A stretch of 64,000 bases of DNA from Escherichia coli (GTDB lineage Bacteria > Pseudomonadota > Gammaproteobacteria > Enterobacterales > Enterobacteriaceae). This document shows, piece by piece, positions 23,920 through 35,761 of the stretch (position 1 is its first letter; each line of letters starts with the position of its first letter). The notes beneath the pieces are model-generated. The model was not told the origin of the DNA, ran no database searches, and saw nothing but the letters and a program-made list of their open reading frames with translations. Position numbers and translations under genes: made by a program. The stretch lies in NCBI RefSeq assembly GCF_009931435.1, contig NZ_CP043414.1; one strand, given 5' to 3'.

Positions 23920-24135
23920 ATGGAACTCAACTGCCCAACCTGCCATAACCCTCTCGAACGCAACGGTGAAACTGCCCACTGTGCAACTTGTGCCAAAGAT
24001 TTCACCATTCAGGCGCTTTGTCCTGACTGCCATCAGCCATTACAGGTGTTAAAAGCTTGTGGTGCAGTAGATTATTTCTGCCAGCATGGGCACGGTTTAA
24101 TATCCAAAAAGCGCGTTGAATTTATTGTTGCTTAA
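23920..24135 (+). CDS. yfgJ: Small zinc-ribbon protein YfgJ
   Basis: 71-aa ORF with paired CxxC motifs (CPTCH...CATC, CPDCH...); conserved position after der. Confidence 0.8.
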   Translation: MELNCPTCHNPLERNGETAHCATCAKDFTIQALCPDCHQPLQVLKACGAVDYFCQHGHGLISKKRVEFIVA

Positions 24136-24326
24136 TATTATTTAAATATATGGTGTAATCATTTGTATTCATAATATAAATGATTGCATCCTATTTTATT
24201 TGTTGAAACGCAAATGTAAGTGAGCGAAATCACTGTGTTATAAATTTAAGATTATATTTAGTTTTCCTGGCGTGCCTTTCTGAATAATCTGGAATAGAAT
24301 ATTAGAGCTAATTTTAAGCATTATTA
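24136..24326. promoter_or_regulatory. AT-rich leader/promoter region of the sinH-like island (left island boundary)
   Basis: About 190 nt of strongly AT-rich sequence (ttaatattatttaaatatatggtg...) directly upstream of the first island gene; contrasts with GC-rich flanking core genes. Confidence 0.4.
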
Positions 24327-26519
24327 ATGTCACAGGGGATGTGCATGCTGCGATGGAAACGCTGTATTATGCTAACATTTATCTCTGGAGCTGCTTTTGC
24401 GGCTCCAGAGATAAATGTTGAGCATAAAGAATCGTTACCTGATTTAGGTAGTCAGGCCGCACAACAGGAAGAGCAAACTAACAAGGGTAAATCGCTAAAA
24501 GAGCGTGGTGCCGATTACGTCATTAACTCTGCCACGCAAGGGTTTGAAAACCTCACACCCGAGGCGCTGGAGTCCCAGGCCAGAAGCTATCTGCAAAGTC
24601 AAATTACCTCTACGACACAATCTTATATTGAGGATACACTCTCCCCCTACGGTAAGGTCCGAACGAATCTTTCTCTTGGTCAGGGCGGCGATCTGGATGG
24701 CAGTTCCATCGACTATTTTGTTCCCTGGTATGATAATCAAACTACTGTTTATTTCAGCCAATTTTCTGCACAACGAAAAGAAGATCGTACGATCGGGAAT
24801 ATTGGGCTTGGTGTAAGACATAATTTTGATAGATGGTTATTGGGTGGAAATATATTTTATGATTATGATTTTACCCGTGGGCATCGCCGTTTAGGTTTAG
24901 GTGCCGAAGCCTGGACTGATTATTTAAAATTCTCTGGCAACTATTATCATCCGCTTTCTGACTGGAAAGACTCCGAAGATTTCGATTTTTATGAGGAGCG
25001 TCCTGCGCGCGGTTGGGATATTCGCGCCGAAGCCTGGCTACCTGCTTACCCGCAGCTTGGCGGTAAAATCGTTTTCGAACAGTATTACGGTGATGAAGTC
25101 GCGCTTTTTGGCACCGATAATCTGGAGAAAGATCCCTTCGCCGTCACGCTGGGTGTGAAATACCAGCCCGTACCGCTCATTGCCGTAGGAACGGATTTCA
25201 AAGCCGGCACTGGCGATAATACCGATCTTTCTGTTAACGCAACGCTGAACTACCAGTTTGGCGTCTCGCTCAAAGACCAGCTTGATCCTGACAAAGTAAG
25301 CGCGGCTCACTCGCTCATGGGCAGCCGTCACGACTTTGTTGAACGTAACAACTTTATTGTTCTGGAATACAAAGAGAAAGATCCCCTCGATGTCACTTTG
25401 TGGCTGAAAGCTGATGCGACGAATGAACATCCCGAGTGCGTGATTAAAGATACGCCAGAAGCAGCCATCGGGCTGGAAAAATGTAAGTGGACCATTAACG
25501 CGCTCATTAATCATCATTACAAAATCGTTGCTGCCTCCTGGCAGGCGAAAAACAATGCTGCACGTACGCTGGTGATGCCGGTTATCAAAGAAAATACGCT
25601 TACCGAAGGGAACAACAATCACTGGAATCTGGTGCTGCCTGCCTGGCAGTACAGCTCTGATAAAGCCGACCAGGAAAAACTCAATACCTGGCGGGTACGC
25701 CTGGCGCTGGAAGATGAAAAAGGCAATCGGCAGAACTCCGGCGTGGTGGAAATTACCGTTCAGCAGGACCGTAAAATTGAGCTCATTGTTAACAACATCG
25801 CCAATGTACCGGATGAGAACAATCACAGCCACGAAGCCAGCGCGCAAGCGGATGGTGTAGATGGTGTCGTCATGGATCTCGACGTTACCGATAGCTTTGG
25901 CGACAACACTGACCGTAACGGTAATGTCTTGCCGCAGGATAATCTCAGCCCGCAGCTGTTTGATGCCAACGATAAAAAAGTGACGCTGACGAATAAACCC
26001 TGCACCACCGAAGTGCCGTGCGTTTTTATCGTCAAACAAGATAAAGAAAAGGGGACCGTTACGCTCTCCAGTACGTTGCCCGGCACTTTCCGCTGGAAGG
26101 CGAAAGCCGCCCCTTATGATGACAGTAACTATGTTGACGTAACGTTCCTGGGTTCTGACATCGGCGGGCTGAATGCTTTTATCTACCGCGTTGGTGCAGC
26201 TAAGCCCGTCAATCTTATCGGCAACAAAGAACCGTTGCCTCTCAATAGCCGCTATCGCTTTGTGCTGTGGCGCGACGCTAACAAAGACGGCGTGTTCCAG
26301 CTTTCTGAGAAGCTCACTGACGATGAGATGAAACAGTATGACTATCAGTGGGAATTCACGGGGCATAGCGTAAATGGCAATACCGGTGCGCAAACCAATA
26401 CCACGAACGTCGATATAGAGATCCCGGCAACCAACAAGGAAGCGGCAGCAAAGTTTAGTGCCCAGGTAACCGATGGCGTGCAGGGATACGGTTTGCAGGT
26501 CAATTACAGCAAGAAATAG
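24327..26519 (+). CDS. sinH: Intimin/invasin-family outer-membrane protein (inverse autotransporter), SinH-like
   Basis: 730-aa ORF; signal-like N-terminus (alternative start at 24345, MLRWKRCIMLTFISGAAFA); central inverse-autotransporter-type beta-barrel region; located between yfgJ and xseA as in the Salmonella CS54-type island (from memory). Confidence 0.7.
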   Translation: MSQGMCMLRWKRCIMLTFISGAAFAAPEINVEHKESLPDLGSQAAQQEEQTNKGKSLKERGADYVINSATQGFENLTPEALESQARSYLQSQITSTTQSYIEDTLSPYGKVRTNLSLGQGGDLDGSSIDYFVPWYDNQTTVYFSQFSAQRKEDRTIGNIGLGVRHNFDRWLLGGNIFYDYDFTRGHRRLGLGAEAWTDYLKFSGNYYHPLSDWKDSEDFDFYEERPARGWDIRAEAWLPAYPQLGGKIVFEQYYGDEVALFGTDNLEKDPFAVTLGVKYQPVPLIAVGTDFKAGTGDNTDLSVNATLNYQFGVSLKDQLDPDKVSAAHSLMGSRHDFVERNNFIVLEYKEKDPLDVTLWLKADATNEHPECVIKDTPEAAIGLEKCKWTINALINHHYKIVAASWQAKNNAARTLVMPVIKENTLTEGNNNHWNLVLPAWQYSSDKADQEKLNTWRVRLALEDEKGNRQNSGVVEITVQQDRKIELIVNNIANVPDENNHSHEASAQADGVDGVVMDLDVTDSFGDNTDRNGNVLPQDNLSPQLFDANDKKVTLTNKPCTTEVPCVFIVKQDKEKGTVTLSSTLPGTFRWKAKAAPYDDSNYVDVTFLGSDIGGLNAFIYRVGAAKPVNLIGNKEPLPLNSRYRFVLWRDANKDGVFQLSEKLTDDEMKQYDYQWEFTGHSVNGNTGAQTNTTNVDIEIPATNKEAAAKFSAQVTDGVQGYGLQVNYSKK

Positions 26520-26574
26520 GGTCGGCGCCATGGCTGATCGGGCCACCGCTGAATATTAATCAAGGAGAGTGTTT

Positions 26575-27567
26575 ATGAAACCTGATATGAAACGTGGCCT
26601 GACAAAAGTCGCGCTCGCGTTGATGCTGGCTGGATACTGTGCCGTACCAGCCGCTATGGCGGAAGATGCCGCCTGGGTCGCCAGTGGAGCGACCGCTGAA
26701 TTCGAAGGGACTATACCCTGGCTCTATCGCGAAGGGGGGAATGCCACGATTAACTCGGAAGATGCGGATCACATTAAAGTGACGTCTGATGGTAAAGGGA
26801 CCCGCCCTGCAGGTAGCGAGACGGATAAACGCCTTTACTCAGGGGATACCATCACGCTGGGATGGGATATCGGCGATACCGAAGGGGATGTTGATGATGG
26901 TCCCGCAGGCATTGATGCGAAAACGACGGCCACTATCAAATGGTACAGCTACAGCAATAATGCGGGTGGCGATAAAACGGAGCTGACCGCAGCGGCAGGC
27001 AAGACGAGTTATAAACTCACTGATGACGATCGTGGGCGTTATATCGGTGTTGAAATCCAGCCCATCACCCAGACCGGTAATCCCTTCGAGGGAACGTCGC
27101 TGACTCTGCTGGATATTTCAACGGCCAGCGGTGGCGGCAGCGATACGGACAATGTCGATCCCGGCCCGGTTGTGAACCAGAATCTGAAAGTTGCCATCTT
27201 CGAGAAAGGCACCACTACCAACCTTATCGGTGGTAACACGGCCATTGCGCTTAATAAAACGTATGTGGCCAAACTGTACTCGGATGAAAACCAGAACGAT
27301 AAATACGACGCAGGTACGGATATGGACGTTACCGCTAACTATGACTTTGCATGGGTCTTTAACGGTAACAGTAAACAACTTGCTGCGGCGGGCGGTATTG
27401 CTAATGCCAGCTTCGATAACAATGACATTGTTATCCCGCAAACTAACGAAGAAGCAAGAACCAGCCTTAATGGTAGTGACCGTAATGGTAAGAGTGGTCT
27501 TGCGATCCCGGCAAACGGCGACGGCGTTCAGGGCTATACGCTGTCTATCATTTACAAACACCACTAA
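26575..27567 (+). CDS. sinI: Secreted SinI-like protein, homologous to the SinH C-terminal module
   Basis: ORF 26569-27567; ATG at 26575 preceded by aaggag RBS; signal peptide MKPDMKRGLTKVALALMLAGYCAVPAAMA; C-terminal DGVQGYTLSIIYKHH parallels SinH C-terminal DGVQGYGLQVNYSKK. Confidence 0.65.
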   Translation: MKPDMKRGLTKVALALMLAGYCAVPAAMAEDAAWVASGATAEFEGTIPWLYREGGNATINSEDADHIKVTSDGKGTRPAGSETDKRLYSGDTITLGWDIGDTEGDVDDGPAGIDAKTTATIKWYSYSNNAGGDKTELTAAAGKTSYKLTDDDRGRYIGVEIQPITQTGNPFEGTSLTLLDISTASGGGSDTDNVDPGPVVNQNLKVAIFEKGTTTNLIGGNTAIALNKTYVAKLYSDENQNDKYDAGTDMDVTANYDFAWVFNGNSKQLAAAGGIANASFDNNDIVIPQTNEEARTSLNGSDRNGKSGLAIPANGDGVQGYTLSIIYKHH

Positions 27568-27576
27568 TGCGCACAA

Positions 27577-27606
27577 CAGCATTCCCATATGGGAATGCTG
27601 TTTTCC
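27577..27606 (+). terminator. Hairpin plus T-tract after sinI (cagcattcccatatgggaatgctg then ttttcc)
   Basis: Perfect palindrome 10 nt after sinI stop, followed by a T-run; a second long palindrome follows at 27608-27642. Confidence 0.5.
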
Positions 27607-27676
27607 GCCTGTTTTGCTTAGCGACGCGTTAAGCAAAACAGGTTGATGTTTTGTTTATCATGCTGGAGTTTTCTAC

Positions 27677-30600
27677 ATGTCGGTATGTCTGAAACCAGGG
27701 AAAATCATTATGCTTCTGGGCATGTTGGCAGCTTTTATGCTGTCTGACTTTGCACGGGCAGGGGCGGAATGGCAGACATATCCTGATTCTACAGGCGAGT
27801 TTAACGGAACCGTTCCTTTTGCCGACAGCGCCAGCGTACCCGTCTATCAGGGCAGTGTTCAGCTTAATCCTGCTGAATCTCATGATGTCGGGTTTTCTGC
27901 TAAACCGAATGAATTTAGTGTTGACGATGACGCTGCTAACCTGATTGTTGCTAATCCTCAGGACAATGAAGGCGACCAGTTTTCCACACCACCTGCGCTG
28001 CGCTGGGAAAATCAAACACCCCCTACCGTCAGCCTGGTGTGGGCCGATGCCGCCACGCCCGATGTGCCCCTTAACCCACAACCCATTGCTAACCGTAGCT
28101 TTTGCGCTCAGGGGCTCGCCGGACGCTCGCTGGTGGCCTGGCCGCAGATTGATGCGCAGCAAACCCTCCCACTGCTCTACCTGCTGACCTCGACCGGGTA
28201 TCCCTATGCGGGGACGGTGGCGCTGGTGGACCAGAAAGTGACCCTGAACATCGCGCCCGCGCAGGGCGATTTAATCTCGGTGAGCGCCAGCGGTTATAAC
28301 GAAACGATCGCGGCGGCAAAAACCACCGTTGGCGACACCATCACGCTCACCGTCACCACTAAAGATTGTCAGGGCAACGTCGCGGGTAATATTCCGTTTA
28401 TTATCAAACGTAAAGATGCTGAAAATCGCCAGGGGGCAGTGAATAATAGTGCGCCAGTGGTACTGGATAGCACCGAGTTAACGACGACGGCTACCGAATA
28501 CCATGGCACCTCTGATTCCAACGGCACGGCCACCATCACGGTGAGCCAACCGAACGGCCCTGGTGTCAAAACGCCACTGGTGGTCAGCATTTCCGGCATT
28601 GCGCAAACCAGCGAAACCGCAGTGATTTTTACCGTACTCACCAGCCCGGACGTGGCGCAGGCTACGATGTGGGGCCATATGGCGGAGACGGTAGAAGCCC
28701 ACGGTTACACCTTCAGTCGACCAAAGCTGGCGGCAGAAGTCAGCAATGAAAGCGCCACGGTTGTCGATCATAACGAAACCTGGTCCACCTTCACCTGGAG
28801 CGGCGCAGATAGCCACTGCACCGTGCTGCCCGGCATGCGCCACTTCGGCGCGCTGGCGACCGTTATCCCCACGTCGGTGCAGACAGCCCTTGGCTGGCCG
28901 ATGCAGGGGGATTATTACTGGTCATCGCTGGCGGGCACCACCGGGCAGCACCATGCGGCGGATGTCTCTAACCGTAGTGAAACGCAAAAGCCGGATAGCA
29001 CCCCGTTTCTTGTGAGCTGCGTGGATAAACCCGCGCCTGATGTCGAACCGAAAATCGTCCTTACGCCCGAAAACTATGATGATACGGCACAGGCGATGAA
29101 ATCGCAGGTGGGCGAAGACGCCACGATGCGTCTGACGATCACCGACAATAAAAATAACGATCAACCACTGGCGTATTACTACTTCTCGCTGCATCTGGAT
29201 GACGGCGTTAACCGCAAAAATCAAACCGATTCCGCCTGGGAAGCCCATCCGGTGCAGATTACTGGTGGTTCGAATTTACAACAGGTTGATGCTCACACCT
29301 ATGAAGGCATGACCGATGTCAACGGTCAGGCTTCGCTAACCCTGAGTCAGCCCGACGGCGCAGGCGTGAAAACCCATATCACGGCGAAAATGCGCAGCAA
29401 TTTTACGGCTACAGATGCCAAAGACGTGATTTTTACTGTGATCACCAGCCCGGACAGCGACAAGGCGCGGATGTGGGGCCATATGCGCGGCATTGTTGTA
29501 TCTGGCAGTCTGTTCAAACGCCCAGTGCTGGCGGATGAAACTGAGCATGAACTGGGATCGGTGCGGGAAAATGACGAAGACTGGGCGCTGTTCGATCAAG
29601 ACACCAGTATGCAGGCTGAATGCGGCGTCGGCCATACGCCACGTCAGAGTGGGCTGGAAAGCCTGTTTTCAGCCCATCCCGGTAACGCGATTGGCACTGA
29701 GTATGGCTGGCCCACCGCCCAACAGAGCTACTTAAGCGCGGTGGAGCAAGCCACGCATTCATCGGTGAATCTGGGGAACGGAAACGTCGACAGCTACTCC
29801 GGCTTTAAGCAGAATTACCTCTCCTGTTCGGGCAATGAGATGGTAGCGAAGGTTGAAGTCAGCACCGATCACGATATCACCCCTGGCAGCAAAGCGCAGG
29901 CCAAAGTAGGTGACACCATCGTGATGACCGTGCGTACGATTAACGCGCTCAATAATACCCCGGTACCCTTTACTGCATTCACCATTACCAAAGGCATGGG
30001 GTATAACCGAGCGGGGCTGGTGAGCGGGTTTGATGACCCGAGCAGCGGCGCAATCTCGATGAATGGCACGCAATACGGCACATCACAGCCGTCGATGGTC
30101 TACACAGGTACGACAGATGCACAAGGCGTGGCAACGGTCGAAATAGAGCAACCCCAGGGGGTGGGGTTAAGAACCGTGCTGAGCATTACGCCGGTCAATT
30201 CCCATCTACCAAATGCCATTAATTACAATGTTATTTTTACCACCCCAACCAGCCCGGATGTTAGTGGGGCGCAGATGTGGGGCCATATGGATGAAACGAT
30301 TACCGTTGATTCATTAACCTTTACCCGGCCTAAGCTGGCAGCAGAAATCGCCAGTCCGGATGGCACACTAACGGAAAAAAACGAAGTCTGGGCGCGCGTT
30401 AGCCAGGCCAGTACGGCCATTACCAGTAAAGGCGGTTGCGGAACCAATATGCTGCCGCGCCGCTCCCAGCTCAGTGCGCTTTATGACGCTAATAACGGTA
30501 ATGCGGTGCAAGCCACACACGGCTGGCCGACGCAGCGTCAGCCCTACTGGAGCAGTTCCCCCGCGGATTTAACGCCGCACAATTACACCATTGCCCTGGA

Positions 30601-33600
30601 TAACGGCGCACAGGCCATCGGCGGCGATACGCCGGTTTACGTCAGTTGCCTGACGACGGCGAACAAACCTGCCAGCAGCATTACGCTGGATGTGGTTGAT
30701 AACGCACAGTGGGCTGCCGGAAATAACGCGGCGAAGCTGAAAAAAGGCGAAACGCTACGGGTTAAGGTAACGGTAAAAGATGCGCAGGGTAATCCGCTCA
30801 CGGATATGCCATTTAAACTGAGTCGCGGAGACGGTTATACCCGCACGGGCGAAAAACATATTGCCGGTAGTGGCGATGCGCTGGTGGCACCGGTGGTGAT
30901 TAACAGTGGGCTGGCGGATGAAACGACGTTGAACGACACCGCGGGATTTTATACTGCCATGACCGGTAGCGACGGCAGCAAAATCCTCAATATTACCCGC
31001 CCGGATACTCACGGCACCAAAACGGCGCTGACGGCGACGTTGTATTCCGATCCAACAAAAAAAGACAGCCTGGATACAATCTTTACTGTGGTCACCAGCC
31101 CGGATAGTAGCAAAGCGAAAATGTGGGGGCATATGCCGGAAACGGTGACGGCTGCGGACGGTACGGTATTTAAACGCCCGCTGTTGTTGAAGGAACTGGC
31201 CTATCAGACTGGGCGAACATCGACGTCTGAAGACAATGAAAACTGGGCGTTGTTTAACATTAATTATGCGAGTTCTTCCACGACGTATAGTGGCTGTGGA
31301 ACCAACTATATTCCGACTCAAGCCGGTCTGACGTCACTGTTTGCTAATAATGCGGGCAACACCATGAAAACCGTGCAGGGCTGGCCGGTGGCAACACGCT
31401 ATTTGTCCAACACGTCCGACAACGGCAGCATGGAGCAGCGTAACTACAAGGCGGTAGATCTCAGCAATGGCACGAGTGCGGCAGTGTCATCAACGGCGCT
31501 GCAACTGCTGACCTGCCAGACCACGCCGGTAACCACGGTGGGCCAAATTCTGCTGGAAGCGGCAGATCCGGCGACGCTGGATACCACCTATAACGTGGTA
31601 AAAGCGAAAAAAGGCGAAGAATCCGTGGTGCGCGTCACCACCAAAGATACGCAAGGCAACCTGGTGGGCAATACGGCATTTATCCTGACGCGTGCCAACA
31701 GCGTGAGTCGGGCTAACGCATCAGCAACCGCGAGCGTGGGCGCGCTGACGGTGACGGATGCTTGGGGAAATACGCGAAATAATTTCCAGTCGACGAGTGA
31801 AACGATTTACGGCGTGACTGGTGCAGACGGGTCAACGACATTTACCCTGAAACAGGATAACAGTACCGGGTTAAGAACCGATCTCACGGCAAAACTGGAT
31901 ACGTCCAGCAGCGTCAAGGCGACGCTACCGGTGGTCTTTACTGTCGTGACCAGCCCGGATTCGCCAAAAGCGAATTTTTGGGGACATATGGCCGAAACGG
32001 TGATGGCCTCCGACGGTACAATCTATAAACGACCACTGTTGTTGAAAGAGCTGAGTAACACCAGTGGTCGAAATTCTACGGCTGAAAACGGTGAAGATTG
32101 GGCAAGATTCACCTGGACTCAGTCGGCTGACACCAGCATGAATGGGTGTGGTACAGATTATATGCCGACGCTGGATGGACTGAAGTCTTTGTATGACGCC
32201 AATAGCGGTAATGTGATGAGTACGGTGCAGGGATGGCCGGTAAAAACGACCTATCTCACCAATACCCCGAGTGATACGCAAACAGGGAGCCGTTACTACA
32301 ATGTGGTGCAACTGAATACTGGTGCAGTCTCACAAATCTCGACGAACACAGTCGTGCAACAAACCTGCCGCACAACGCCGTTGACGGCTGCTAGCCAGAT
32401 TACGCTGGAGGCCTCAGACCCCTCGCAATTTGTCAGCATTGACAGTACGCTTAGCGCGATCAAAGTGCAGAAAGGCGATAGCGTGTCGATCCGCATTTCG
32501 ACTAAAGATGCACAGGGGAATTTAGTCGGCAATACGCCGTTTGCCCTGAAACACGCTAACCCGGTCAATCGCCAAAATGTGGCGTCAACATCGCAGAAAG
32601 TGTCGGTCACGACTGCGTCGGGTACGACGGTGGATACCACTGCATCGACCATTCTGTATGGCGTGACCGGGCCAGACGGAACCACCACGATGACACTCCG
32701 ACAGGATGTGTCTACTGGACTCAAAACCGACTTTTATGCTCTGTTGAACGATACCGGCGTGTCGTCGAACACCTTGCCAGTGATCTTCACCGTCGTCACC
32801 AGCCCGGATACACCGCTGGCGGCCAACTGGGGGCATATGGCGGAAACCTTTACCAGCAGCAAGGGCGTCACCTTCAAACGGCCTTTCCTCAAAGCTGAAC
32901 TTTCTGGTGGTACGGCGGTAACGACCAATAATGAAGTCTGGTCGCGCCTGACAGCAACGGAGAAAACGGATGCCAGCAAGGCTGGGTGTGATGAGAGTTA
33001 TCAACCGCTGATGACTGACATGCAGGGGTTGTATGCGGATTACCCTAACAACCAGTTGGGCACGGTGCTCGGCTTGCCGACTTCCGCCGGGTATATGTGG
33101 GCCTACGACATGATGACGGTTTCTGGCAGCAGCTGGAGCAACCAGGCATATTCGCTCGTTAATGGTCAGACAGTTCAGGCATCGTCCAGTTATACGGCGG
33201 TAGTGATGTGCCTGGTGGAACCGCATACCGTTCCGGCGATGATAGAGATCACTTCAACAGCACAGGATGCGGCAAAAACGGTCAGCAATGGTGGTCGACC
33301 GAGCGCCGTAGCGAAGAAAGGTGAGACGATTCCGCTGACGGTGACCGTACGTGATAGCACCGGGAATCCGGTACCCTACGCCGACTTTACCCTCACGCGT
33401 GGAACGACGCTGGATCGCTCGAAAGCAACCGTTAACTCGAGTGCGGACGATCTTACCGTGAAGTCATTGATACCCGCGAACAGCGACGCTGGGCTGACGG
33501 CAAATGGGGCAAAAGTGCTCAGAACAACGGGCAGTGATGGCACAGCCACCTTTGAAGTGAGCCAGAATGCCACGACAGGTCTGGCGACACCGATAACCGT

Positions 33601-35761
33601 CACGCTGGCGCGCGATACAACCAAAACCGCCACGCTGGATGTTATCTACACGGTGATAACCAGCCCGGACTCACCGAGCGCGAAATTCTGGGGATACATG
33701 CCGGACACCTTTACCAGTTCGGCAGGCGTCACCTTCAGACGACCGCTCCTGAAAGCCGAAGCGACTTCAGGGTCATCGATTAGCACTAACGGCAATGGTG
33801 AAGTGTGGTCGTATATGAGCAACGTTCAAAATTTAACATCGACAGATTGTCCGCTGGAGAATCAACCGCGCAGTAATGAATTGTTGGATTTGTATAATGA
33901 TCATCCCAACGGCGCGATAATGACTGACCTGGGGCTGCCGATATATGCAGGCAAGTGGTGGGCTTATGATATGGTCATGCCGGATTTATATACGTGGCAG
34001 TATCAGACTGTCAGCCTGAGCGCAGGAGATATCGCGAAGAGCTCGGCAAACAACGCGCTGATGCTTTGCCTGGCGAAGCCGCATCCGGCAGGCGTCAGCG
34101 TAATGTTGACGTCATCCGCAATGGATAACGCCAGAACCCTCAGTAATGGCGGGCGACCCAGCGCGTCAGTGAAAAAAGGTAACCCACTGCCAATTGTGGT
34201 GACGGTCAAAGATCGTGATGGCAACCCGCTGGCGGGAGAGGCCGTTACGCTCAGGCGTGGTTCAGCGATGAGCCGTTCAGGAGCAGGAGTGGGCACGCCG
34301 GCAAATGCAATGACGTTGACAGAGTTGACACCTGTGTCGGCGGAGTTTTCTCTGGCCGCACACGATACGCAATGGCAAGGTTTCACCGGCAGTGATGGTA
34401 CGGCCACTTTCAATGTTGAACAGCCTGAGACCATCGGCCTGGCCATTCCGTTCACCGCTATACTGGCGCGAGATGTCGCAACTACCAGCGTCCTTGATAC
34501 GATCTTTACCGTCGTCACCAGCCCGGATTCCGCAATGGCGACCTACTGGGGCCATATGCCGGATACGGTAACGGCGGAAAACGGCGTGGTCTTTGAACGG
34601 CCTAAATTGTTGAAAGAGCTGCCGTCGAGCGCCGGAGTCAGTCAGGTGACGGATAACAATGAAGTGTGGCCGTTGTTTAAGGCAACGCAAAGGGAAGATA
34701 GCAGCCTCAGTCCTTGTGAAGCGGCACGTCGGCCATTGAGCGATGATTTATTATCGCTCTACGCGCGCTATCCGGGGAACACGCTGACGACTCAAATCGG
34801 CTGGTCTACGAAGTATGCATGGTGGGCACTGGATAACAAGCAGGGGAATGCCCTGGTTGTCAGTCTGAATAATGGTTTTGAGTCGTCGACGGCGAGTACG
34901 GGGTATCAGGGATGTCTGGTCAATCCCCGCGCGACCGTCTCCAGCGTCACGCTGACATCGACGGTGATAGATGCCACTACGCAGGCGGCGAAGGTAAAAA
35001 AAGGTGAAGCCGCGCCCGTCGTTGTTACCGTAAAAGACAGCGCCGGGAAGCCGGTACCGAATGTCGCTTTCACCTTAAAACGTGGTGATGCCGTGCCGCG
35101 TAACAGCGGGGCGACGTTGTATGGTGATGTTGCGGCGATGGATGATATGACGGTACAACCTGCCAGCGGGACGGTGGTAACGCTGGCTGACAGTGGGAAT
35201 ACGATCGACGGTGTGACAGGGGCGGACGGTACGGCAAGTTTTGCCGTTCGTCAGGATAATACGCCAGGATATAAAACGCCGTTGACGGTGACGCTGACGG
35301 ATAACGCCACAATAACGGCGACGCTGGATACGATTTTCACCGTGCCGACCAGCCCGAATGTCGCCACGGCGTATTTCTGGGGGCATATGGCGGATACCGC
35401 CACCGTAAGTGGCAAGACGTTACATCGCCCGCTATTGCAATCAGAGTTGCCGTCAGGGGCTACAGCGGCAGTAGCGCCAACGGTGAATAATGAAATCTGG
35501 GCGCTGGCACATGTGATCGATGCTCAAAAATGGGATATTGCAAAGCAGTGCGGTGACTTTAGTAGAGCACCGAGCTATACCGATTTACAGTCGTTACATA
35601 GCAGCTTTAGCGCGCTGGGATGGCCATCATCGATAAGCTTCCCCTATTTCTCTACCGATCGGGCCGGTTCGTTCTATTGTGGCATGGATGAAGGGGCGGG
35701 GACACAAAACTGCGGTATTCAGGCATCCAGTACTGCGGGGTTTGCAACCTGTTTCCAGTAG
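27677..35761 (+). CDS. ratA: Giant RatA/RatB-like repetitive surface or secreted protein (Big_1-type Ig-like domains)
   Basis: 2694-aa uninterrupted ORF; N-terminal signal ([17 protein letters not shown]); nine tandem repeats each with a Big_1-like strand (e.g. [13 protein letters not shown]), a TSPD motif and a WGHM motif; last gene of island, convergent with xseA. Confidence 0.65.
28640..35400 (+). repeat. Nine tandem, divergent coding repeats (period 804-861 nt) inside the ratA-like gene
   Basis: The tgg-ggN-cat/tac-atg (WGHM/WGYM) motif recurs at 28670, 29474, 30278, 31124, 31979, 32828, 33689, 34547, 35378; each is preceded by accagcccgga (TSPD). Confidence 0.85.

Follow-up and report, generated by a model that had tools for sequence, protein, structure and literature searches.

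A short N-terminal leader shared by the SinI and Rat families of the sinH-sinI-rat adhesin locus

How, and whether, the barrel-less SinI and Rat proteins reach the bacterial surface and work with SinH, the inverse autotransporter encoded beside them, has been a matter of hypothesis since 2003–2016. The proteins concerned are of medical interest: SinH is a leading vaccine antigen of extraintestinal pathogenic Escherichia coli (ExPEC), and the proteins of the CS54 island are gut colonisation and persistence factors. We take up the question for a stretch of 64,000 nucleotides of E. coli DNA (NCBI RefSeq assembly GCF_009931435.1, contig NZ_CP043414.1), referred to as a whole as the window, in which a sinH-sinI-ratA locus sits between der/yfgJ and xseA in the chromosome. 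This is the known sinH-sinI-rat adhesin locus (iatB or ila locus), which in E. coli corresponds to the CS54 island genes of Salmonella. To this known system our analysis adds one new, testable detail: directly behind their signal peptides, SinI and Rat proteins carry the same leader of ~20 residues, whose natural F-type and I-type variants give a concrete handle on translocator–substrate or adaptor models.

That the mature N-termini of the SinI-like and RatA-like proteins share a motif had been claimed in an earlier note on this DNA, made by a model from the letters and their translations, and the peptides that it quoted from the open reading frames (ORFs) of SinH, SinI and RatA are present as written. 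The note named non-significant alignment statistics as a refutation. Taken by themselves, the two N-termini of the window fail that check, with no significant similarity (BLASTP E = 1.0), but family profiles overturn the outcome. We worked with 30 loci, comprising 20 genome loci and 10 further ones, from Escherichia, Salmonella, Citrobacter, Pseudocitrobacter, Superficieibacter and Leminorella. With signal peptides trimmed beforehand, the best local match between the mature SinI profile (292 columns) and the Rat N-terminus (235 columns) lay at both extreme N-termini, where hhalign aligned 21 columns with P = 8.4e-6; the best match in a reversed-profile control had P = 0.27, and profiles restricted to the motif matched with P = 1.8e-12. 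The claim is borne out at this level: homology of the leader is weak for the window pair and strong for the families.

The leader follows the consensus (N)LK-x-G-x-W-Q-x4-S-T-G/D-x-I/F-Q/N-G-T-x-P, exemplified by ANGNLKSGQWQIVSESTGTIQGTVPW in SinI and AVLKGGQWQQSRASTDAINGTVPF in Rat, and it immediately follows the signal peptide in each of the 30 SinI and 31 Rat proteins from the loci examined. When a hidden Markov model (HMM) built from the SinI motif only was run on 898 ORFs, 15 Rat proteins ranked directly after 20 SinI proteins, and the reciprocal search behaved likewise; the matches in Rat whose coordinates were inspected lie at residues ~27–68, just past the signal peptide. A six-frame translation of the whole window contained the motif in SinI and RatA only, SinH being without it, which shows only its absence elsewhere, as both proteins are already in the profile.

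The same specificity is seen on a much larger scale. A combined leader profile, searched against 1.84e9 representative proteins, returned 53 matches at E ≤ 1e-3, and every match adjoining a signal peptide is a SinI or a Rat; four long matches checked against NCBIfam include both RatA-like and RatB-like proteins. The remaining matches are few and none is N-terminal, the one that could be assigned being a He_PIG repeat protein that shares the generic core STGxISGTP only. This profile search found no third family with an N-terminal leader among the 1.84e9 proteins, and as an N-terminal element the leader is confined to the SinI and Rat families. That the resemblance might be an effect of chance or composition near signal peptides, as the BLASTP value for the window pair would allow, is scarcely credible: the family-level P value with its reversed control, the database-wide specificity and the identical position in every SinI and Rat from the loci refute it.

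The shared leader, its database-wide specificity and the concordant variants described below appear to be new. The literature examined, in which Kingsley 2003 and Prehna 2012 are represented by their coverage in Heinz 2016 (PMC4943183), does not mention a shared leader, and Heinz 2016 describes the Rat N-terminus as 'highly divergent'.

Column by column, the leader is at least as conserved as the folded domains, despite low or very low AlphaFold2 (AF2) confidence in its first half. In the SinI model, the predicted local distance difference test score (pLDDT) is below 50 for residues 1–32, and the block means are 40–64 over residues 21–40 (64 for 31–40) and 80 for 41–50. In the RatA model, it is below 50 for residues 27–39, with block means of 79 for 41–50 and 94–97 for 51–90. 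The leader is conserved without a confidently predicted fold, a combination typical of peptides that fold on a partner, as the leader may do. An N-glycosylation sequon (NGT) was considered as the motif's purpose and rejected, since most SinI proteins have QGT.

All three proteins of the locus are members of their NCBIfam families, with scores above the curated cutoffs (Table 1). SinH, whose longest ORF starts at 24327 and encodes the 730 residues by which we number it, scores 1474 bits against the equivalog model NF033423 (cutoff 999), and its N-terminal inverse-autotransporter β-barrel is recognized by Pfam IAT_beta (PF11924; residues 69–342, E = 1.2e-105). A sequence search of the PDB matched this barrel to the invasin/intimin structures 4e1t and 4e1s; barrels of this kind were the only matches of SinH, and the SinI family had none. 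SinI, for which 26569 is an alternative start, matches NF040711 (SinI family autotransporter-associated protein) over its full length (377.2 bits, cutoff 165; residues 8–329 on profile positions 1–299 of 299), and the RatA-like protein, a DUF823/DUF824 repeat adhesin, scores 5410 bits against the equivalog model NF011844 (cutoff 3870), with nine Pfam matches each to BIg21 and InvE_AD. Both SinI and RatA bear a Sec signal peptide and lack a barrel, the Pfam and NCBIfam scans having found no barrel domain in the RatA-like protein.

Table 1. Positions in the window of the leaders, genes, domains and hairpins discussed in the text.
Feature	Coordinates	Strand	Basis
SinI leader, residues 30–50, EDAAWVASGATAEFEGTIPWL, right after the predicted signal peptide (1–29)	26662..26724	+	family alignments, hhalign, AF2
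RatA leader, residues 29–49, right after the predicted signal peptide (1–28)	27761..27823	+	hhalign, HMM, AF2
SinH C-terminal Ig-like domain, residues ~613–730	26163..26516	+	hhalign, BLASTP, SinI model match
SinI C-terminal domain, residues ~204–330, paralogue of the SinH C-domain, ends ...DGVQGYTLSIIYKHH	27184..27564	+	BLASTP, NCBIfam, hhalign, AF2
sinH (iatB), intimin-like inverse autotransporter, 724 aa	24345..26519	+	RefSeq start; NF033423, Pfam IAT_beta
sinI-family gene, 330 aa: signal peptide, leader, Ig-like domain 1, SinH-like C-terminal domain	26575..27567	+	
ratA-like gene, 2694 aa: signal peptide, leader, N-terminal β-sandwich domain, then 9 BIg21 + InvE_AD repeat units	27677..35761	+	NF011844, Pfam
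Two tandem hairpins, sinI-ratA intergenic region (27568–27676)	27575..27643	+	folding of 29 intergenic regions

At its other end, SinI resembles SinH. The earlier note took SinI for a paralogue of the SinH C-terminal module, and this proved correct for a whole immunoglobulin (Ig)-like domain. In a BLASTP alignment of 115 columns (E = 1e-9), SinH 628–727 and SinI 217–329 are 31% identical; NF040711, the NCBIfam model of SinI, matches SinH 624–727 (E = 9.5e-23) and the SinH model matches SinI 213–331 (E = 3.7e-11); and an 18-sequence SinH alignment compared with the SinI family alignment by hhalign gives P = 3.9e-22 over 113 columns, with no match between SinI and the rest of SinH in the same comparison. 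The C-terminal domain of SinI and the final Ig-like domain of SinH, ~115 residues long, are homologous through one ancient domain duplication from SinH to SinI. This paralogy is already published: the similarity was documented by Kingsley 2003, as cited in Heinz 2016 (PMC4943183), and is stated for E. coli IatB by Goh 2019. RatA has no significant similarity to SinH (best BLASTP E = 0.17).

A shared modular origin of the island through duplication and shuffling, also put forward in the earlier note, stands in part. The C-domain is duplicated, and SinI looks modular, a Rat-type leader joined to a SinH-type C-domain; no recent event is seen, however, as identical leader residues are written in different codons and the C-domains are 31–44% identical. 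Recent gene conversion between the 5' ends of sinI and rat was rejected as well, since almost all codons for identical residues differ synonymously, within the window as between loci.

The shared end motif of SinH and SinI had been taken for a possible binding or targeting module in its own right, and on this point the earlier note is not supported. AF2 models the SinI C-domain as a confident β-sandwich with high pLDDT (strands 204–210, 228–236, 256–265, 272–275, 285–287 and 322–329), the last strand of which is the quoted ...DGVQGYTLSIIY, with 10-residue block means of 83–96 over residues 301–330. The motif, DGVQGYxLxxxY (or DGVQGYxLxIxY), is thus the final β-strand of the shared domain, with D316, G317, V318, Q319 and G320 invariant in 47 SinI sequences and the motif conserved in the 18 aligned SinH sequences. 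An outer-membrane β-signal typically ends in a terminal aromatic residue, and a separate signal of this or a similar kind could be read into the motif's invariance or near-invariance in both families, its alternating hydrophobic pattern and its aromatic end. We hold this to be very improbable, given that the homology spans the whole ~115-residue domain, that the motif is a confidently modelled strand of a sandwich, that two to three basic residues follow it in place of a terminal aromatic one, and that SinI has no barrel. A binding or targeting role would fit the N-terminal leader better than this motif.

The duplicated domain is also of interest as an antigen. The C-domain of SinH is 'SinH-3' (residues 602–724 of the 724-residue protein), a protective vaccine antigen (PMC9937491). 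This antigen is exactly the domain duplicated in SinI, the invariant DGVQGY strand being common to both copies. Antibodies against SinH-3 may therefore also recognize SinI, a plausible cross-reaction that would be relevant when interpreting protection data.

In what kind of system, then, might the leader act? ZirT/ZirS/ZirU of Salmonella (PMC2270342; Prehna 2012, as cited in PMC4943183) combines an inverse-autotransporter barrel bearing a short Ig passenger with barrel-less, Sec-dependent partners that resemble the Ig domain of that passenger, and SinH, SinI and Rat are alike in these respects. Heinz 2016 (PMC4943183) drew the analogy of SinH/SinI to ZirT/ZirS/ZirU and proposed the Rat-like proteins as further substrates, and Goh 2019 says the same for E. 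coli IatB. ZirT-dependent secretion of ZirS has been demonstrated, and it is only for ZirT/ZirS that transporter-dependent export has been. In the window, an inverse autotransporter with a short Ig passenger is followed by barrel-less genes with signal peptides, and the partner SinI resembles the passenger Ig domain of SinH, as the profile comparison above documents. Judged from its sequence alone, the locus has the genomic and sequence characters of a ZirTSU-like system.

We propose, giving the idea an even chance of being right, that the leader may serve in such an inverse-autotransporter partner system as a peptide by which both proteins dock to, or are recognized by, a common partner. As a short linear peptide, it would allow the barrel-less SinI and Rat to engage one and the same partner after Sec export. 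That partner could be SinH, or SinI and Rat could each be the partner of the other. The leader would in that case do the work of the recognition signal required in ZirT/ZirS/ZirU-like or two-partner-like systems.

Variation of the leader bears on this proposal. It comes in two types, an F-type (xEFxGT, without LKxG) and an I-type (xI/V/LxGT, mostly with LKxG), and the residue at position −2 from the invariant G, either F or one of I, V and L, is of one kind in both members of all 29 SinI–Rat pairs. F-type SinI proteins fall into two deep lineages that are only ~40% identical overall, and one Rat leader type is found paired with different SinI lineages (locus L003 compared with L024), so that recombination has shuffled the modules and left the concordance intact. 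Rat N-domain bodies that hardly differ, in turn, are preceded by unrelated signal peptides and leaders, which in each case match the SinI of the locus (L003 compared with L017; also L024). In these three loci the switch point lies immediately after the GTxP of the leader, just before a highly conserved segment of 12 residues, and the end of the leader is therefore a recombination boundary at a module edge.

Several observations weigh against a docking role. IatB alone mediates biofilm formation without the downstream gene (Goh 2019), and passage of a substrate through an inverse-autotransporter barrel that its own linker occupies presents a difficulty. The concordance of F and I types could reflect haplotype linkage, the main confounder, because the 3' end of sinH, sinI and the 5' end of rat are contiguous; and on the Rat side, no discriminating column lies outside the signal peptide and leader, which adjoin sinI.

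Other such observations concern the fold, and together with linkage they make up an alternative in which structure or ancestry alone accounts for the similarity. On that view, SinI domain 1 and the Rat N-domain would be remote homologues, the leader would be their best-conserved first strand or hairpin ('TGxIxGTP') with no docking role, and the concordance would be linkage within one recombination block. The N-terminal half of SinI does align collinearly and globally with the Rat N-terminus (hhalign P = 1.7e-6), but this global score, 34.7, is below the 45.0 of the local motif match, so that the rest of the alignment adds nothing net, and its significance is lost without the motif (P = 0.15). 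What does remain once the motif is removed is a weak second collinear island, TxTGxP (hhalign P = 0.009, z ~3.5, a score reached by 0 of 95 column shuffles), which hints that the whole N-domains may be remote homologues. The core of the leader, STGxIxGTxP (~10 residues), resembles the generic hairpin of He_PIG Ig domains (PF05345, motif LPxGLxLNxSTGxISGTP) and matches He_PIG repeat proteins, whereas the leader is found a single time, at the mature N-terminus, and includes the conserved LKxGxWQ half besides. Its second half (EFxGTxP[WF]) has AF2 block means of ~80, isolated β-bridges and, in SinI, a short strand at 49–51; this half may belong to domain 1 and hence be partly structural. The LKxGxWQ half, by comparison, is modelled with low confidence and yet strongly conserved, which a mere strand would not explain, and the concordance survives shuffled combinations of modules. 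On balance we consider the structural alternative rather unlikely. That the leader is itself a He_PIG domain was rejected, as neither SinI nor RatA has a He_PIG match in Pfam at E ≤ 1.

A more elaborate arrangement is suggested by the distribution of the two modules, which is exactly what a head-to-tail chain needs. The shared C-domain would be the receptor for the shared leader, with SinH binding the leader of SinI and SinI binding that of Rat in a barrel-anchored chain SinH–SinI–Rat, formed by β-strand addition in the manner of donor-strand exchange. ZirS and ZirU have been reported to be similar to the Ig domains of ZirT, in a 'multiprotein immunoglobulin adhesion system', and some covariation points the same way. 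Numbered from the ORF starts at 24327 (SinH) and 26569 (SinI), the SinH columns most tied to leader type (623, 633, 636, 693, 697 and 715) all lie in the C-domain; those of the SinI C-domain, only part of the associated columns of SinI, are 226, 228, 240, 282 and 331; and several fall in segments that correspond by BLASTP (SinH 633–639 to SinI 222–228, and SinH 693 to SinI 281, beside 282). These columns could mark a leader-binding surface or mere linkage, and we treat them as a lead only: no SinH column discriminates perfectly, and the SinH C-domain both adjoins sinI, where linkage is a confounder, and is the most variable part of SinH. The SinH segment 601–640 was considered as a tracker of leader type and rejected, since E. 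albertii locus L017 is I-type yet has the F-clade GSDIGGLNAF at the start of the segment.

The models and topology also speak against a chain. In the AF2 model, the sandwich of the SinI C-domain is complete, the last strand being its own, and the tip of SinH is extracellular whereas SinI and Rat are delivered to the periplasm, so that a route across the outer membrane would still be needed. We judge the adaptor chain improbable, and see little chance, too, for the fuller lock-and-key version, in which the C-terminal Ig domain of SinH and SinI would receive the leader of SinI and Rat, SinI would be an adaptor coupling the giant Rat adhesin to the SinH barrel in a non-covalent, modular 'split inverse autotransporter' fibre, and specificity would co-evolve as F and I types. 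In a weaker version of the same idea, the leader might be the long-sought recognition signal for the export or display of partners by an inverse autotransporter.

The proposal of a docking leader also invites comparison with two other systems. In concept it is like two-partner secretion (TPS, type Vb), where a conserved element follows the signal peptide of a barrel-less exoprotein encoded beside an outer-membrane barrel gene. The leader differs in having ~20 residues, not the ~250 of the TPS β-helix domain, and no NPNL or NPNGI motifs, and the SinH barrel is of type Ve. In Pfam scans at E ≤ 1, no TPS-type domain was listed for SinI or RatA, and neither an Omp85 nor a POTRA domain for SinH; with IAT_beta as the barrel, a type Vb two-partner system was rejected. 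The N-terminal extension of chaperone-usher pilus subunits is likewise a short conserved peptide after the signal peptide, of low model confidence when modelled alone, on surface proteins with Ig folds. In donor-strand exchange, the Ig fold of the acceptor lacks a part, which the N-terminal extension of the following subunit supplies. That module logic, with the leader on one protein and the acceptor domain on the previous one, would match SinH/SinI/Rat; however, neither usher nor chaperone is present, the SinI and SinH C-domains are complete sandwiches in AF2 monomer models, and the likeness is one of analogy only.

Across the loci, the three genes show conserved synteny in a tight, operon-like arrangement, and sinH and sinI are reportedly co-transcribed. 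The order sinH-sinI-rat is kept in 28 of the 30 loci, that is, in every locus read far enough, the other two being a contig that begins inside sinI and a contig of 1.7 kb. The latter, an ENA contig of 1,674 bp (L027), carries a sinI with an intact LK-type leader, followed by a convergent gene on the opposite strand; no rat is visible, the contig being too short to judge its absence. Two loci, from an NCBI assembly contig and a Logan run assembly contig (L022 and L023), in both of which SinI is the sequence named for E. coli E2348/69, have a different layout, with a Phage_AlpA gene upstream of sinH, a Rat of only 760 residues, and the Zn-ribbon (yfgJ-like) gene downstream of rat, not upstream of sinH. 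Their SinI leader reads ...STGAINSTVPW, with S in place of the otherwise invariant G.

In genes and gene order, the window is like the Salmonella CS54 island sinH-sinI-ratA-ratB (Kingsley 2003, as cited in PMC4943183) and the E. coli iatB/ila locus (PMC6714894, PMC12525524), but it carries a rare, divergent allele class. Alleles at least 95% identical to it occur in 18 of 5,426 complete E. coli genomes, the locus itself in 1,745. The window SinI is only ~40–45% identical to SinI of Salmonella, Citrobacter and most other E. coli; within E. coli, SinI alleles diverge by up to ~55–60% and SinH remains ~86% identical. Over window positions 24000–28500, the locus is nearly identical to that of Pseudocitrobacter vendiensis (L002; 97% for SinI, 99.5% for the Rat N-terminus and 93% for SinH), which suggests exchange between genera.

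Finally, the sinI-ratA intergenic region holds two tandem hairpins, both of them present in all 29 intergenic regions folded (loci L001–L032) and without a match to an Rfam family. The first (27575–27602) is a GC-rich stem with a U run behind it; the stem differs in sequence among loci and keeps its pairing, and the hairpin therefore looks like an intrinsic terminator. The second (27607–27643), ~35 nt upstream of the rat start codon, contains a palindromic core conserved in sequence, TTGCTTA-N3-9-TAAGCAA, with GTTGAA after it. This palindrome occurs once in the window, and its conservation suggests a protein operator or a sequence-specific RNA element that would set the ratio of sinI to rat expression.

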